Virus record (IMG/VR): IMGVR_UViG_3300035208_004396
Strand: one strand, 5' to 3'
Source: a virus
Taxonomy: Duplodnaviria; Caudoviricetes
DNA length: 64,000 nucleotides
This document shows positions 14,253 to 34,581 of the stretch, piece after piece; the first letter of the stretch is position 1; every line of letters begins with the position of its first letter. The notes under the pieces were generated by a model. The model saw only the letters and a program-made list of their open reading frames with translations. It had not been told where the DNA came from and made no database searches. The translations under genes and the position numbers were made by a program.

Positions 14253-14281
14253 AATATACTAAATTATTCAAGTTTTCTCAA
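14253..14281 (-). promoter_or_regulatory. Sigma70-type early/middle promoter
   Basis: Minus strand reads TTGAGA-17 nt-TATATT upstream of the DHH gene. Confidence 0.7.
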
Positions 14282-29284: not shown

Positions 29285-30073
29285 TCACTTATTTAATCGC
29301 TGTTTTTCGTCATCTTTTACACCTTTTATGAATGATTCTTTAGATTTAAGCCATTCTTTATTCAATGGAGATTTATATAACGGAATATTGATATTTTTAA
29401 TATTATAATCTAGATACATCGATCTAATTTCATCGATTAAACTATCGCTCATAGATGAAATCTCTAATTTTGCTATTTTCTCGTTGGAATTTTCCGATTT
29501 TACTAAACTTTCTTCATAAAGACTCTTATAATCCATACTGAAGTCTATTTTATCATCGCCATAACGTAAAACACTCTTGAAATCTTCTACATTTAATCCA
29601 TAATATATTGATTTAGGTGAATAATTTGCTAAATAATCTCGCATAATTTTTGAAAATTGTGCTATATCCATCTTATCATGAGAGTTATTTTCCGACCATT
29701 CTTCGAATTCTTTAAAATATCTTTCGTATAAGTATTGTATCTTATTTAACATGGACTTAATCCAACTATCTTTTACAGGAGCTATTTCACTTCCTATACA
29801 TTTCAAACTCGGTATAACTGTCATTTTATCTGAAATAGTGAATGCAAATTCCTTGTCATTAAGTCTTTTAGAAAGATCAGTATTGATATTTTTTGTGAAA
29901 AACCAAATAGGTTTAGTTTTATAACCGAATAATGTTTTCGCACTTAATTTAGCTTCATCATATTTACGTCCGAAACGAGCTTCTCTATCAGCTTCGGCTT
30001 TTTTGAAATATTGTTGATAATTATGAGAATAACCACCATAATTAGTATTATAATATTCTAAGAATCTTTCCAT
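29285..30073 (-). CDS. Hypothetical protein
   Basis: 262-aa ORF; ATATATA-N5-ATG. Confidence 0.55.
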   Translation of the reverse strand: MERFLEYYNTNYGGYSHNYQQYFKKAEADREARFGRKYDEAKLSAKTLFGYKTKPIWFFTKNINTDLSKRLNDKEFAFTISDKMTVIPSLKCIGSEIAPVKDSWIKSMLNKIQYLYERYFKEFEEWSENNSHDKMDIAQFSKIMRDYLANYSPKSIYYGLNVEDFKSVLRYGDDKIDFSMDYKSLYEESLVKSENSNEKIAKLEISSMSDSLIDEIRSMYLDYNIKNINIPLYKSPLNKEWLKSKESFIKGVKDDEKQRLNK

Positions 30074-30098
30074 ACTAATATATATGTGAAAATAACTA

Positions 30099-30170
30099 TT
30101 GAGAAAGATTTAATAATTTCTTATATTATGATCATTGGAACTGAGATTCCAATCGGCTAATTGACAATTC
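30099..30170 (+). promoter_or_regulatory. Sigma70 promoter with boxB/boxA-like leader (copy 1)
   Basis: TTGAGA-17-TATATT, then ATTGGAA-CTGAGA-TTCCAAT hairpin and TAATTGACAA. Confidence 0.75.
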
Positions 30171-30189
30171 GGAACATTTTCAATCTTTT

Positions 30190-30520
30190 TAGAATTAAAC
30201 TGTAGGCTCAGAAACAGCCATCAGCTAAAGAGTGGCAAAGGTTCCTCCTAGTATAACGGGGACGGTGAAAACTTAGCAAAAGCCCGTTTAAGTCATGTTA
30301 ATTAATAGGACATGATGACATATGCTGGAGGATAATCAATCGATTTGTTACGTACATTCAAACTAGTTAAAAAACTGTGAAATAATACCAAGGCTAATGA
30401 GTGCTAAGTCTGGTCTAAGGTGAAATTTCACAGCCAGAAGATCTCCGGGTTTGATATGTATAGTATACATTCGGGTAAGTTAATTGCTCGAGCCTTTGGA
30501 GTAAAATTACATTTTTTCTA
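30190..30520 (+). ncRNA. ~330-nt structured ncRNA with a 23S rRNA H43/H44 (uL11 site)-like core
   Basis: TGTAGGCTCAGAAACAGCCATCAGCTAAAGA at 30201; closing GGAGTAAAATTACA; many internal hairpins. Confidence 0.7.
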
Positions 30521-30591
30521 TTGAGATTCATCTAATTTTTTCTATATTTCAATTTGTTAAAGATTCAAATCTTAACTGTTAATTGAAATTT
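30521..30591 (+). promoter_or_regulatory. Sigma70 promoter with hairpin and boxA-like leader (copy 2)
   Basis: TTGAGA-16-TATATT, hairpin GTTAAAGAT-TCAA-ATCTTAAC, TAATTGAAATT. Confidence 0.6.
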
Positions 30592-30607
30592 TGGTTTTAT
30601 TTTTTAT

Positions 30608-30691
30608 GCCCAGGTGGTGGAATTGGTAGACACTAGGGACTTAAAATCCCTTGGTCGTAAGATCGTGAGGGTTCGATTCCCTCTTTGGGCA
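30608..30691 (+). tRNA. tRNA-Leu(TAA)
   Basis: Full cloverleaf with long variable arm and GTTCGATTC T loop. Confidence 0.95.
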
Positions 30692-30694
30692 CTA

Positions 30695-30765
30695 TAAGGC
30701 GTGGTTTAGCTGCTACGTCTTAGAAATGGAAAACGTTTGAGCTAACAAACGTTTTAGTTTCCATT
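30695..30765 (+). ncRNA. Kissing-loop two-hairpin RNA, copy 1
   Basis: Loops TTAGCT and AGCTAA are exact reverse complements; GAA junction. Confidence 0.7.
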
Positions 30766-30769
30766 AGCT

Positions 30770-30844
30770 ATATTATTCGTATAATTCTGGCAGTACAATC
30801 GCCTATCGGCAGATTGGTATGGGTTCGAATCCCATATAATATAT
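30770..30844 (+). tRNA. tRNA-like RNA with all-A/U acceptor stem and aberrant anticodon arm
   Basis: D arm GTAT/GTAC, T arm ATGGG-TTCGAAT-CCCAT; anticodon arm irregular. Confidence 0.6.
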
Positions 30845-31013
30845 CTTTTAGTTGAAATAAAATAGAGATTAAAAATCCTTGCCATAAACTTCCTAGATCT
30901 ATAAGGCAAAAGATAAAACGATACGTGAATGAATGTGTAATAAGCATAATCTAGTATATTCACATTATATTGTTTAATCCCCCCGTCAAGTTTTACTGGG
31001 TTCTTGACATTTT

Positions 31014-31088
31014 GGCCGAGTAACCGAATTTGGCATAGGTACTTGTTTCAAACACAAGATTTTGTGGGTTCGATTCCCGCCTTGGCCA
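31014..31088 (+). tRNA. tRNA-Leu(CAA), short variable loop
   Basis: CTTGT-TTCAAAC-ACAAG anticodon arm; 5-nt variable loop. Confidence 0.9.
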
Positions 31089-31092
31089 CTAT

Positions 31093-31164
31093 GCCGTTAT
31101 ATGTCAATGGTTAGACGAAAGGACTTTTAATCCTTGGATCCGAGTTCGAGTCTCGGTAACGGCA
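31093..31164 (+). tRNA. tRNA-Lys(TTT)
   Basis: Full cloverleaf. Confidence 0.95.
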
Positions 31165-31447
31165 CTAATTTTCAGGAAAAAAGATAAAAAACCTCGACTG
31201 GATGTAAGTAAAGAGGGGTTTGACCTTTTCAGATTTTAGACGTAAAATCGATAACAAAAGGTTCTTTTTATACTTAATATAATTTAAGATCTCGATTAAG
31301 TTGAAATAAAATAGAGATTACCACCTAAATTTTCTTAGAAGTTTAGGAAAGGCTGAGTGGTTGAGCACTGACCGAGTACCACTGAAATAATAAAAAATGC
31401 AGTTCGGTCATCATTTTATAGGATTGATAACTATTATGGATAAAACA

Positions 31448-31690
31448 ATGAATAAAAATGAATTTGATGAATTATTCAAGGTTCCTGCTAATATGGATTC
31501 AGATTCATATGAGGACTGGATAAGGAAAAAGTGCATCGATCTTCGAAACGGTATTGACTTTATGATTGAGAATATTGAATATTTGGAGGGTGATGCTGGC
31601 GAATTTCCGTCCGAAAGAGAATCTGTATACGATAAATGTTATTCTAGATATCAGGAGTTATTCGATAATTCAACCGAAAATGTAGATTGA
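31448..31690 (+). CDS. Small acidic hypothetical protein
   Basis: ORF within the tRNA region; start 31436 or 31448. Confidence 0.55.
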   Translation: MNKNEFDELFKVPANMDSDSYEDWIRKKCIDLRNGIDFMIENIEYLEGDAGEFPSERESVYDKCYSRYQELFDNSTENVD

Positions 31691-31692
31691 CT

Positions 31693-31902
31693 ATGAAATA
31701 CAATGGCATAGAACTAGTCGATGTAAGTCAGAAGGAATCTATTACAAATGATGATCCCATAGAAATGATCTGTTGGAATGATGGAGATATTCCAGTCAGG
31801 TGTATAGTTTATGCAATAGTTCCGGGAAGTAGATATCCTGTTATTACTGATTGTAATAGATGCATAGTATTTCAACATTGTGCATATAATAACGTTTTTT
31901 AA
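31693..31902 (+). CDS. Small hypothetical protein
   Basis: Follows the previous ORF; P.EM..W.D....HCA pattern. Confidence 0.55.
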   Translation: MKYNGIELVDVSQKESITNDDPIEMICWNDGDIPVRCIVYAIVPGSRYPVITDCNRCIVFQHCAYNNVF

Positions 31903-31970
31903 AGTTACAGGTAAAAAGAATCACTCCACTATAATATGTCGGTTTCTTGAGAAGGTTCTTCCGACATTTA

Positions 31971-32046
31971 GGCCAGGTAGCCGAATTTGGTATAGGCGTG
32001 GCGCCTAGGACGCCATTTTTTGAGGGTTCGAATCCCTTCTTGGCCA
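31971..32046 (+). tRNA. tRNA-Leu(TAG), short variable loop, C33
   Basis: TGGCG-CCTAGGA-CGCCA. Confidence 0.88.
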
Positions 32047-32080
32047 CTTTTAAGCTGGAATAGTTTGATAAATATAAAAA

Positions 32081-32164
32081 GGAGATGTGTGCGAGTTGGT
32101 TTATGCAGGTAATCCTGAAAATTACTGGTCTTATGGCCCGTAGGTTCGAATCCTACCATCTCCT
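32081..32164 (+). tRNA. tRNA-Ser(TGA), C33
   Basis: GTAAT-CCTGAAA-ATTAC; long variable arm. Confidence 0.9.
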
Positions 32165-32168
32165 CTAT

Positions 32169-32250
32169 GGAAGATTACGCTAAAGGTAAGCGGAAGCTTT
32201 GCTAAAGCTTTGAGGCAAAACTCTTATAGGTTCGAGTCCTATATCTTCCT
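32169..32250 (+). tRNA. tRNA-Ser(GCT)
   Basis: Full cloverleaf with long variable arm. Confidence 0.92.
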
Positions 32251-32253
32251 TAC

Positions 32254-32325
32254 TGCCTAGTCGTATAAAAGCAAGTATAATGGACTTTGAATCCATTGGA
32301 CGGGGAGCGTTACCCTGCTAGGCAA
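32254..32325 (+). tRNA. tRNA-Gln(TTG), variant T loop
   Basis: ATGGA-CTTTGAA-TCCAT; T loop AGCGTTA; U1-A72. Confidence 0.85.
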
Positions 32326-32343
32326 GATTTTTAAAAATAATAG

Positions 32344-32414
32344 TTGAGAAATAAGAATTTCTTTTCTATATTATGATCATTGGAAACGAGATTTCCAATC
32401 GCTTATTGAATATT
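32344..32414 (+). promoter_or_regulatory. Sigma70 promoter with boxB/boxA-like leader (copy 3)
   Basis: TTGAGA-17-TATATT, then ATGATCATTGGAAA-CGAGA-TTTCCAATCG and TTATTGAAT; near-duplicate of copy 1. Confidence 0.78.
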
Positions 32415-32415
32415 A

Positions 32416-32486
32416 CGGAATATGGTGTAATGGTAACACAATAGCTTTGCAAGTTATTTTCCCGAGTTCGAATCTCGGTATCTACA
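32416..32486 (+). tRNA. tRNA-Ala(TGC) with poorly paired acceptor stem (possible pseudo-tRNA)
   Basis: D, anticodon and T arms intact; acceptor CGGAATA/TATCTAC has 3 mismatches. Confidence 0.6.
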
Positions 32487-32490
32487 CTAT

Positions 32491-32572
32491 GCTAGCGATG
32501 CGGAATTGGTACCGCCCCTGACTGTAGATCAGGCGCCTTCGGGCTATGTGGGTTCGAATCCTTCCGCTAGCA
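32491..32572 (+). tRNA. tRNA-Tyr(GTA)
   Basis: Cloverleaf with GCC-TTCG-GGC variable arm. Confidence 0.92.
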
Positions 32573-32575
32573 CTA

Positions 32576-32641
32576 TGAGATTGAATTTGACGGTTCTATC
32601 TCAGAAATGGTTATTATTTTCGTCAAAAAATAATGACCGTT
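32576..32641 (+). ncRNA. Kissing-loop two-hairpin RNA, copy 2
   Basis: Loops TTGACG and CGTCAA are exact reverse complements; same GAA-ATGG junction as copy 1. Confidence 0.7.
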
Positions 32642-32654
32642 ATTATAGTAAAGT

Positions 32655-32727
32655 GACTTCTATAGTATAATTGGTATTACGTGCCACCGTTGCGATGGAG
32701 ATATGTGTTCGAACCACATTAGAAGTC
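32655..32727 (+). tRNA. tRNA-His-like body (G-1:C73) with aberrant anticodon arm
   Basis: 8-bp acceptor GACTTCTA/TAGAAGTC; anticodon region CCA-CCGTTGCGA-TGG has no GTG. Confidence 0.6.
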
Positions 32728-32858
32728 CTAATTTTATTATCTTTTTGGGCATGCTTAGCTGATAACAACATGAAAATCTATCTGATCAAATAATATCTGA
32801 ATAAGCATCGGCGAAAATATGCAACGGGTAGAATAATAAGTTATTTTTTAGGAGAAGC

Positions 32859-32929
32859 TTATGAAATGGCAGCTACCATTTAAAGACTATTAAAGTCTGC
32901 AAAGGTTCGAATTCTTTCTTGCACACTTA
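32859..32929 (+). ncRNA. Second 23S H43/H44-like RNA, with a tRNA T-arm in place of the H44 loop
   Basis: AGCT..GCAGCTACCATTTAAAGA..GC-[AAAGGTTCGAATTCTTT]-GCACAC. Confidence 0.6.
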
Positions 32930-33030
32930 TATAAAAATCCCATACTTAAATGGGCTATATTGATACAATTGGCAGTATAGATAGCGAGAGTTGGGACTTA
33001 GCTCTAAAATAAGAGGTACCAGATTTTTAT

Positions 33031-33103
33031 CGCGGGTGAGTGAAACGGTTTACACATTTGGTTCATACCCAAAAAATAGTCGGTTCGACCCCGACACCCG
33101 CTA
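33031..33103 (+). tRNA. tRNA-Met(CAT), initiator-like
   Basis: C1:U72 mismatch, CGCGGG 5' end; only two G-C pairs next to the anticodon loop. Confidence 0.88.
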
Positions 33104-33115
33104 TTTAAAGTTTAT

Positions 33116-33187
33116 TCCAATGTAGTTCAGAGGTAGAATAAGCGATTGTTAATCGTGAGGTCGGAGGTTCGAATCCTTCCATTGGAG
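33116..33187 (+). tRNA. tRNA-Asn(GTT)
   Basis: Full cloverleaf. Confidence 0.92.
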
Positions 33188-33195
33188 TTTTTTAT

Positions 33196-33291
33196 ACATC
33201 ATCATGCTGCAACGGGTCTTATAAGCCTGTACCCAACAACAAATATGCGCGGCTGGTCTTGGGGCACCGGGTTCGATTCCTGGATGATGTA
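33196..33291 (+). tRNA. D-armless tRNA-like RNA, anticodon TAT (Ile)
   Basis: Acceptor ACATCAT/ATGATGT, anticodon arm CGGGT-CTTATAA-GCCTG, T arm intact, 37-nt variable region. Confidence 0.75.
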
Positions 33292-33315
33292 CTAAGTTTA
33301 GTTATAATCCATTTT

Positions 33316-33388
33316 GACCCCTTGGCGAAATAAGGAACGCGACTGTCTGCAAAACAGTTATGATATGGTGCAATTCCATAAGAGGTCT
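33316..33388 (+). tRNA. tRNA-Cys(GCA)
   Basis: ACTGT-CTGCAAA-ACAGT; U73; variant T loop TGCAATT. Confidence 0.88.
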
Positions 33389-33408
33389 TTTTAATATATA
33401 ATCCATTA

Positions 33409-33482
33409 CGGTCTGTAGCTCAGTACAGTAGAGTACTGGTTTTGGGAACCAGATGTCGTGAGAGCGAAGCTCACCAGACCGA
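33409..33482 (+). tRNA. tRNA-Pro(TGG), variant T loop
   Basis: CTGGT-TTTGGGA-ACCAG; T loop AGCGAAG. Confidence 0.88.
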
Positions 33483-33562
33483 TAATAAATAGAGCTTCTA
33501 CTTTTAAGTTTTGAAGAGCACTTCGAAAAACTCTTTAGGTTGATTAACCTTTGAACGATCAC

Positions 33563-33605
33563 TGTTAGGAATGGTTTACCGGAGTTCGATTCTTCGACCT
33601 AGCAA
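33563..33605 (+). ncRNA. tRNA minihelix-like RNA (acceptor + D-loop-like linker + T arm)
   Basis: TGTTAGG/CCTAGCA, AATGGT linker, CGGAG-TTCGATT-CTTCG. Confidence 0.45.
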
Positions 33606-33840
33606 TATTAAGAATAAAAGCGCAAAATGTGATAAAATCAAGTTTATCATTTCCGATATGTTTAATGATTTCGGCGTTTTTATTTTTTTTAACTATATTA
33701 AGTCCCTTATATAGTGTCCAAGAACAACACTATATTAAAAGTCTGCCGAAAAAGCCTAATGATTATTACTTGGTAATCTAAGGCGATCTGATACACCACG
33801 AGGCTAGATTTAGAGGTATATACGGTGAGATCAGAATTAT

Positions 33841-33915
33841 ACTCGATTAGCTCAAGTTGGTCTAGAGCAGCTGCGTCAGGCAGCAGGGTCATTGGTTCAA
33901 ATCCAATATCGAGTA
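33841..33915 (+). tRNA. tRNA-like RNA with shortened anticodon loop centred on TCA
   Basis: Perfect acceptor, D and T arms; GCTGC-GTCAG-GCAGC. Confidence 0.7.
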
Positions 33916-33920
33916 CTTTT

Positions 33921-34000
33921 GCTCTCGTAGCCACATCGGTCTTCTAAACCGCTAAGTGTAAATGGAGCTGTAAATACAGGTTCGATCCCTGTCGAGAGTA
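33921..34000 (+). tRNA. D-armless tRNA-like RNA, anticodon TCT (Arg)
   Basis: Acceptor GCTCTCG/CGAGAGT, CGGT-CTTCTAA-ACCG, T arm intact, long variable region. Confidence 0.75.
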
Positions 34001-34048
34001 CTAAAAGATATTTATATTTCTTAAATTTAACAAAAACAAAGGAATCTA

Positions 34049-34504
34049 ATGAAAAAGTTAATCGTTTTGTGTTTCATCCTTGTTATTACGGCATGCAGTA
34101 ATAATTATTCTAATGGTGAACGAGTTGGTCTTGTAACTCAATTCTCAAAAACAGGTCTGATTTGGGATAGTTGGGAAGGACAGTTGAATATGACACAGAC
34201 TGGTATGAATAGTTCGGCTGAGTTCGATTTCAGTTTGGATAACGATATGCCAGAATTGCAAGATAAGCTTATCCCGATACTCGATTCAGCAGCTCATTAT
34301 GGTTGGAAAGTATCGTTAAGTTATACTGAAGTAACTGGATATAATTGGTTGAATAATAGAGGTTGTACAAATCATTTTATTAAAAATGTAGTTGTTTTGG
34401 ATAAGAATCCTATGCATAATGTATTTAATAAGGATACTTTGAATAAAAGTGATACCATTTATGTAGGACATCGTGATACCATTTATGTAGTAATAAAGAA
34501 GTGA
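34049..34504 (+). CDS. Phage lipoprotein
   Basis: Signal peptide with lipobox ITAC; YS.G.R.G....FS..G....WEG.L motif. Confidence 0.75.
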   Translation: MKKLIVLCFILVITACSNNYSNGERVGLVTQFSKTGLIWDSWEGQLNMTQTGMNSSAEFDFSLDNDMPELQDKLIPILDSAAHYGWKVSLSYTEVTGYNWLNNRGCTNHFIKNVVVLDKNPMHNVFNKDTLNKSDTIYVGHRDTIYVVIKK

Positions 34505-34510
34505 GTTTTA

Positions 34511-34581
34511 GCCCTTATAGTTCAATGGTAAAACACCAGATCTGTAATCTGGCTTTCTTGGTTCGAGTCCAGGTTTGGGCG
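34511..34581 (+). tRNA. tRNA-Thr(TGT), C33, two U-U acceptor mismatches
   Basis: CCAGA-TCTGTAA-TCTGG. Confidence 0.75.

Follow-up and report, generated by a model that had tools for sequence, protein, structure and literature searches.

In the phage DNA analyzed here (64,000 nucleotides from an IMG/VR record, referred to below as the window), a plus-strand stretch at the head of an array of tRNA genes carries two short blocks that resemble part of 23S ribosomal RNA. The question raised by this locus is whether the likeness is a chance match, a piece of an rRNA gene, or an RNA of the phage's own, and in the last case what such an RNA would do in an infected cell. The phage is a distant T4-like myovirus that encodes a tail sheath, a gp41-like helicase, an SbcD/gp47-like nuclease and a topoisomerase II. 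The analysis indicates that 30190–30520 (+), 331 nt in length, is very probably a real structured non-coding RNA and a member of an RNA family; judged by its sequence, it is a divergent member of a phage-specific family in which the two ends of the RNA form a copy of the 23S GTPase-associated centre (GAC, helices H42–H44). Both other explanations, a chance match and a piece of an rRNA gene, were rejected, since the element belongs to a phage RNA family.

The initial annotation had described a free-standing mimic of this rRNA domain with a large inserted domain, beginning with a block identical to 23S rRNA at 26 of 31 positions. Positions 30201–30231 (+) read TGTAGGCTCAGAAACAGCCATCAGCTAAAGA, while two real 23S genes taken as reference (L060 and L402, the LSU rRNA identity of both being confirmed) read TGTTGGCTTAGAAGCAGCCATCATTTAAAGA; the sequences differ at 5 of 31 positions, and the 26 identities thus stand. 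As aligned, the matched 23S stretch is helix 43 together with its 3' flank. The second block, which had been placed about 265 nt downstream, was found as GGAGTAAAATTACA at 30498–30511 and is the helix-44 hairpin, and the proposed TAGAA/TTCTA closure was likewise borne out, as TAGAA (30190–30194) pairs with TTCTA (30516–30520) inside a closing helix of nine positions. The claim that the second block mirrors a GC-GUAAUA-GC hairpin held in part: a hairpin is present, but it reads G-A-GUAAAA-U-U, with G.U and A-U replacing G-C and C-G. The overall description of an H42–H44 mimic interrupted by a large insert is supported by the placement of the element in a covarying, phage-specific family. Its parts are the following, with E. 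coli numbers in brackets.

30190–30198 (+): closing helix, 5' strand, corresponding to 23S H42 (1047–1055)
30200–30224 (+): H43 mimic (1057–1081), with stem pairs C-G, U-A, G-C / G-C, G-C, C-G and loop UCAGAAACA
30225–30233 (+): CUAAA turn (1082–1086) and GAGU (1087–1090), reading CUAAAGAGU
30234–30494 (+): private inserted domain of 261 nt, with a predicted GGC/GCC closing helix and four arms
30243–30332, 30334–30345, 30346–30469 and 30471–30491 (+): predicted arms of the insert, from a single-sequence fold
30495–30498 (+): UUUG linker, the family signature that joins insert and H44
30499–30508 (+): H44 hairpin mimic (1091–1100), with G.U and A-U pairs, a G.A closure and a UAAA loop; A1095 is kept
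30509–30511 (+): ACA (1101–1103); A1101 is specific to the family, C1102 is the partner of G1087
30512–30520 (+): 3' strand of the closing helix, H42 (1104–1112)

The two strands of the closing helix (30190–30198 and 30512–30520) are paired at seven of nine positions, the two central positions being U.U, and G30230 pairs with C30510 (1087:1102). The H43-like hairpin has the pattern seen throughout the family, (A/C)UGUn before it and AUCA after it; A1067 is kept, C1066 and A1071 are present, and the C1057-G1081 pair is a compensated form of the rRNA A-U pair that occurs in the same form in 22 of 80 family members. The H44 segment (GAGUAAAAUU followed by ACA, 30499–30511) carries four substitutions with respect to the consensus GCGUAAnAGC, two of which make a compensatory A-U pair.

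An Rfam scan, proposed with the initial annotation, showed no known family on the element at the gathering score or at E ≤ 10, the Rfam 15 covariance models without a match there including ROOL, GOLLD, tmRNA, group I intron and L10_leader among others. Since neither LSU rRNA nor any other family appears there, the statement that no other rRNA flanks the element is upheld. ARAGORN finds no tmRNA in the window, and no ORF of at least 40 aa overlaps 30074–30753 on either strand. A covariance model built solely from the copies of other phages (R1), on the other hand, matches 30191–30307 at 45 bits (E=1e-9) and, in the 3' half, 30364–30523 (E=0.002); the 261-nt insert breaks the match into two hits, and there is no single end-to-end hit. 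Because a model made from other phages' copies finds both halves, the element is beyond chance.

The family was collected by pattern searches. Scanning IMG/VR with a 19-mer of H43 in which two loop positions were free gave 74 loci, comprising 68 of family type, one real 23S gene and five chance hits; the 68 all read on as ...AUCA(u/g)(c/u)UAA(g/a)GAGU and then into unrelated sequence. When a second pattern placed no constraint on the H43 loop, at least 116 loci were obtained. At every complete locus UUUGGCGUAAnAGCACA follows 24–397 nt downstream, and after it a strand complementary to the bases just 5' of H43. The invariance of the H43 stem and of positions 1072–1080 follows from the search patterns and carries no evidential weight; the H44 motif and the H42 strand lay outside the patterns, and conservation of the 3' half is therefore independent evidence. 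At least 80 distinct IMG/VR phage sequences were obtained (97–470 nt as extracted, with flanks of 16 nt and 12 nt), and in all 80 distinct members the H44 motif and the complementary H42 strand stand at the 3' end.

In E. coli numbering the common layout runs from the 5' strand of H42 (1048–1055) through H43 (1057–1081), the 1082–1086 turn and G1087-A1088-G-U to the insert, which ranges from 24 to 397 nt across the family, and continues with UUUG, H44 (1091–1100), A1101-C1102-A1103 and the 3' strand of H42 (1104–1111). As GAGU is the natural 1087–1090 sequence of many real 23S rRNAs, the insert can be placed precisely between 1090 and 1091. The linker is nearly constant at its three scored positions (U in 78/80, U in 78/80 and G in 67/80). 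Long-insert members from elsewhere score 44–56 bits with R1 and are matched in the same way as the window copy.

Members lie nearly always among tRNA genes and on the tRNA strand, the upstream tRNAs ending 14–20 nt before G1062 and the downstream tRNAs starting shortly past the 3' strand of H42. The carriers span unrelated phages (T4-like, jumbo Rak2-like, Otagovirus and Lahexavirus) and include these cultured ones:

Pseudomonas pf16, L401 1499–1695: 72 bits, with tRNA-Asn and tRNA-Pro on either side
Pseudomonas UNO-G1W1, L405 1196–1393: 74 bits, within a tRNA array
Cronobacter GAP32, L400 1489–1740: 56 bits, in a gap between CDSs, unannotated
Serratia BF, L404 1194–1445: 59 bits, in a gap between CDSs, unannotated
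Aeromonas 4_4572, L403 1194–1485: 58 bits, directly 5' of tRNA-Met

BLAST also gave hits in the Erwinia phages pEa_SNUABM_12, 19, 44, 47, 49 and 50, in Erwinia Kaldavass and in Xanthomonas XbC2. At these five cultured-phage loci Rfam reports tRNAs only, and on 17 loci carrying other members it reports no known family matching the RNA. When contigs of bacterial genomes were scanned, the matches listed comprised 112 real 23S rRNAs (naturally GAGU), 9 chance hits and 0 family members.

Several neighbours of family members were noted in passing. A ROOL RNA lies directly downstream of member L027 (1503–2100), and tmRNA genes lie directly downstream of members L015 (8864–9133) and L028 (by ARAGORN, 442–812 nt past G1062). 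Authentic 23S sequence was seen in L402 (Paenibacillus phage Pd_22F, MZ092003.1, 82770–85209) and in several 'phage' records of 2–7 kb, and is probably host contamination or transduced DNA. Five large phage records carrying the RNA encode no uL11. A phage-encoded bL12 was rejected as a partner, since a bL12 C-terminal-like hit above the cut-off in one of these five carriers is no consistent association. With regard to such hits, a 340-kb jumbo phage with a GAC-mimic RNA (L398; G004:C1:189516-189599; IMG/VR contig 3300050120_000152) has a 144-aa frame that matches PF00542 at 28 bits, and a weaker bL12 C-terminal hit is found in G001 (L399).

Covariation among the homologues, the second check proposed at the outset, was evaluated on an alignment of 26 short members (A1), and H42, 1057:1081 and 1082:1086 were found to covary. 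In A1 the GAC secondary structure leaves 91.5% of cells paired, as compared to 22–49% when the 3' partners are slid by 1–3 columns, and in 500 shuffles the covariation score never comes up to the observed one. Double-sided compensatory changes are seen at each of the eight H42 pairs, and 1057:1081 is AU in 13 members and CG in 13. Among 44 sequences compared, 1082:1086 is CG in 20, UA in 16, AU in 1 and CA in 6 (the window copy, with C1082 and A1086, being one of the six), and U never stands with G. An alternative proposed by RNAalifold, in which 1081–1086 pairs with a UUUGGC linker, was rejected: 1082 and 1086 are mutually correlated, and a double change to A:U in member L057 keeps 1082:1086 but breaks the alternative. 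The short members also have a common covarying arm in their inserts.

Comparison with the 112 real bacterial 23S rRNAs, which were collected with the same search pattern, separates the family from rRNA. All 80 members have A1101 and none of the 112 does, and the C1057-G1081 pair of the 22 members is likewise seen in none of them; because both features are absent from 23S rRNAs, the family is a lineage of its own and not the product of repeated capture of host rRNA. An LSU rRNA gene or fragment (RF02541/RF02540) at the window locus was rejected because there is no LSU match and the 261-nt insert parts H43 from H44, and it is also contradicted by A1101. R1, which was built from phage RNAs, scores an authentic 23S GAC at 61 bits, a value that puts a formal figure on the closeness of the imitation. 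The likeness is not uniform: among the 80 members, G or C replaces A1067 in 11 and A1095 in 6, and the loops that contact the factors are therefore kept less constant than those of rRNA.

Some relatives carry a further piece of rRNA-like structure. The sarcin-ricin loop (SRL) hairpin AGUACGAGAGGA, with at most two or three changes, is found in the inserts of six long members (L105, L135, L086, L119, L028 and L097), where its flanking stems differ in sequence while complementarity is kept, that is, they covary. With this hairpin, the six RNAs copy both halves of the ribosome's factor-binding site. In the window copy no match to the hairpin with up to three substitutions occurs within 30190–30523; an SRL mimic was considered there and rejected, the stretch at ~30248–30265 matching 12 of 18 positions and being predicted to pair elsewhere.

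Among the family cores compared, that of the window copy is, on its primary sequence, the most deviant. C1066 occurs in 0 of 80 members and is natural in ~24 of 112 real 23S rRNAs, and A1071 occurs in 2 of 80. In H44 the C1092-G1099 pair has become A-U, a compensatory change, and G1091-C1100 has become G.U, a combination found in 0 of 80 members. The two U.U of H42 are a further deviation. A1067, A1095, U1060, A1088 and G1093.A1098 are all retained; the deviations could nevertheless weaken binding of uL11 or of another ligand. Position 1071 takes part in a base triple with the 1091:1100 pair. An archaeal LSU rRNA (L144) and a bacterial-like LSU rRNA (L145) combine the H43 loop of the window copy (C1066, A1071) with A1091-U1100 instead of G-C, and for this reason 1071 may covary with 1091:1100, a possible three-way covariation that is offered as a lead only.

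Relatives of the window copy with the same insert or the same core variants were found neither in IMG/VR nor in the metagenome collection, and blastn of the RNA against INPHARED gave no match. The pattern scans of IMG/VR did not return the window copy itself, and its phage is also missing from INPHARED. A metagenome scan with the exact H43 19-mer of the window returned solely real archaeal or bacterial LSU rRNAs and chance hits, a pattern for its H44 variant returned chance hits only, and a search with a window-specific 20-mer returned two ordinary family members. A candidate second copy at 32842–33015 (+), a weak model hit (E=0.19), was rejected because its sequence resembles a ribosome-binding site with a tiny ORF and what is left of a tRNA T-arm; by eye, AGGAG is followed there by a 10-codon ORF and the T-arm-like remnant GGTTCGAAT.

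The insert of the window copy (30234–30494) has a minimum free energy of -74 kcal/mol (z=-3.68), and 1 of 200 shuffles folds equally well. Its predicted fold is a four-arm junction closed by GGC/GCC, modelled from one sequence because no relative shares the insert or the core variants. No homologue of the insert was found among the other family members, and an rRNA-like piece within it was rejected, as the best-scoring stretch, at 25.7 bits, barely differs from the mean of the shuffles, 25.4.

As the first gene of the plus-strand tRNA array, the RNA lies between a divergent ORF at 29285–30073 (-), which has no family match and no relative in IMG/VR, and a tRNA-Leu gene at 30608. The elements that bear on its transcription, together with the other occurrences of the same promoter-like motif in the window, are these:

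30608–34581 (+): tRNA gene array, 13 tRNAs by ARAGORN and 15 by Rfam
30099–30127 (+): promoter-like TTGAGA-17-TATATT, ~62 nt upstream of the RNA; a consensus match only
30521–30548 (+): promoter-like TTGAGA-16-TATATT, starting one base past the end of the RNA, ahead of tRNA-Leu
32344–32372 (+): promoter-like TTGAGA-N16/17-TATATT
14253–14281 (-): promoter-like TTGAGA-N16/17-TATATT

The dedicated promoter that the initial annotation had put directly before 30201 proved to be misplaced: TTGACA (30161) and TAGAAT (30190) stand 23 nt apart, and with this spacing there is no canonical sigma-70 site just before 30201. The TTGAGA-N16/17-TATATT motif occurs four times in the window, as compared to 0.12 expected by chance, and three of these copies are on the plus strand in the region of the RNA and the tRNAs. 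Transcription of the window RNA probably starts from the putative promoter at 30099–30127, and as promoter-like copies both precede and follow the RNA, it may form a transcription unit by itself; its counterparts in other phages would probably be excised from the tRNA-array transcript.

Two observations concern the array itself. A tRNA with anticodon UCA at 33841–33916 (+) is called tRNA-SeC by ARAGORN and scores 46 bits with the Rfam tRNA model; it is a possible opal (UGA) suppressor and may indicate stop-codon recoding in the phage. Three matches to the Rfam tRNA model without an ARAGORN call (30770–30843, 32420–32481 and 32656–32727, all +), one of them partial (model positions 5–66), may be degenerate or unusual tRNAs.

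As to function, a mechanism of mimicry or decoy in the broad sense is somewhat favored. The window RNA would fold into the compact GAC tertiary module and bind host uL11, and, being off the ribosome, it would be a competitor of ribosomes for some ligand that docks at the stalk base. The most likely function is mimicry of the stalk base because the copy of the uL11-binding fold is constant, including bases that are unpaired in the secondary structure, while the insert is dispensable in length and in sequence. The isolated 58-nt GAC RNA binds L11 tightly, and also thiostrepton, which makes binding of uL11 the most secure prediction; to our knowledge uL11 is the one protein known for tight binding to the isolated domain. 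Binding of uL10 is doubtful, since H42 is represented by a short generic helix that lacks kink-turn 42, which a full uL10 site needs.

A more novel reading, with a probability of roughly 0.3, is that the RNA and host uL11, joined in some relatives by the SRL, make up a ribosome-free replica of the factor docking site that is used by the phage in counter-defence. Such a replica would capture toxins of immune systems or of competitors whose target is the GAC or the SRL, or it would trap a GTPase or RelA. Since some members add the SRL, ligands that recognize the two halves of the site together are suggested, namely translational GTPases or toxins that attack it. The location in tRNA arrays fits a toolkit for protection of translation; phage tRNAs can counter anticodon nucleases, and the proposed counter-defence by a GAC mimic is parallel to this. 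Toxins of host defence or of bacterial competitors that are directed against the GAC or the SRL can be named as its ligand only tentatively. A toxin that acts on the GAC has been described: the secreted toxin Tre23 ADP-ribosylates H44 of the GAC (1095–1098) and impairs the GTPase activity of EF-G (PMC8661411). HEPN defence nucleases that cut rRNAs and tRNAs have been reported (bioRxiv 10.64898/2026.07.14.738597).

Other ligands and other functions were also weighed. That uL11 itself is the ligand competed for seems doubtful, and so does the corresponding view of the RNA as a pure uL11 sponge, which would titrate free or exchangeable uL11 (perhaps with uL10-bL12) and leave L11-poor or L11-less ribosomes on which RelA is not activated, thereby blunting the stringent response. 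Ribosomes without L11 are in fact 'relaxed' (relC), and the scaffold of the L11-binding fold is the best conserved part of the RNA while the factor-contact loop bases vary, both of which agree with a sponge; however, the six members with an SRL hairpin are left unexplained by it, as the SRL has no role in L11 binding, and L11 bound to ribosomes would need to be exchanged in the course of a single infection cycle. Translational GTPases as ligand are unlikely. A trap or platform for EF-G, IF2, RF3, BipA or a similar factor, in which a docking site free of the ribosome leads to sequestration or to futile GTP hydrolysis, would suit the six members that join GAC and SRL in one RNA, and also the retention of A1067 and A1095 in the window copy, and EF-G reportedly binds GAC and SRL oligonucleotides. 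The affinities reported are weak, however, and EF-Tu and EF-G are very abundant; moreover, the SRL is missing from the window copy and from most members, and A1067 is not invariant.

It is very unlikely that the GAC-like fold serves merely as a highly stable structural clamp and that function resides in the phage-specific insert as an aptamer, a ribozyme or a protein-binding arm. The size of the window insert (261 nt), its better folding than shuffled sequence and the covarying insert arm of the short members speak for a role of the insert, but inserts of 24–397 nt are non-homologous across the family, and it is the GAC copy that is constant, down to single bases unpaired in the secondary structure. 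Least probable is that the element has no function and is left over from a capture of host 23S rDNA, or that it acts in cis as a spacer or a processing element within the tRNA transcript. The location in a tRNA array and the real 23S fragments in some 'phage' records would be in keeping with this, but the compensatory changes, A1101, the fixed point of insertion with its UUUG linker and the spread over unrelated phages indicate selection on the fold, and no rRNA flanks the element.

Within full-text literature no description of the family was found, subscription journals lying outside this coverage, and the catalogue of structured RNAs in IMG/VR (PMC10690425) does not mention it. Because of the journals outside coverage, a small chance is allowed that the family has already been described somewhere. 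Should the replica reading be true, phage anti-defence RNAs would gain a new class with this family, which would also be the first mimic of a functional rRNA centre to act in trans; no other case of a functional ribosomal centre copied by a free-standing RNA is known to us. Should the family bind uL11 or ligands of the stalk base, phages would have a new route to manipulate or protect translation, and tRNA arrays would carry a third kind of cargo beside tRNAs and tmRNA, ROOL or GOLLD. The idea is testable now, since cultured Pseudomonas, Cronobacter, Serratia, Erwinia, Xanthomonas and Aeromonas phages carry unannotated copies. With the family, dozens of natural variants of a classic tertiary fold of RNA also become available; among them the window copy, with the most divergent core, reveals at which positions change is possible, and that such changes are compensated. 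Many phage genome annotations would need correction.

Among known systems, ROOL and GOLLD are large ornate RNAs of phages and prophages near tRNA genes and share the genomic niche of the GAC-mimic family, but they have no sequence or structure match to it and are not rRNA mimics. The sarcin-ricin loop (23S H95) is copied by six long family members and not by the window copy. The L10 leader (RF00557) and similar leaders of r-protein mRNAs are likewise RNAs that imitate an rRNA protein-binding site; these leaders, however, work in cis from a position upstream of r-protein genes, and what they copy is the protein-contact patch alone, whereas the window RNA has no downstream ORF, stands in a phage tRNA array, has no Rfam match and copies the whole domain. 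With the 23S GAC itself (H42–H44, E. coli 1051–1108, the 58-nt uL11/thiostrepton domain) the window RNA has the same helices in the same order, and in common with it U1060/A1088, G1093.A1098, A1067, A1095 and the 1082:1086 pair. It differs from the GAC of the ribosome in being free-standing, with 261 additional nt between 1090 and 1091, a UUUG linker, A1101 in place of U, an H42 cut to a short generic helix, C1066 and A1071 in H43, and A-U and G.U pairs in the stem of H44.
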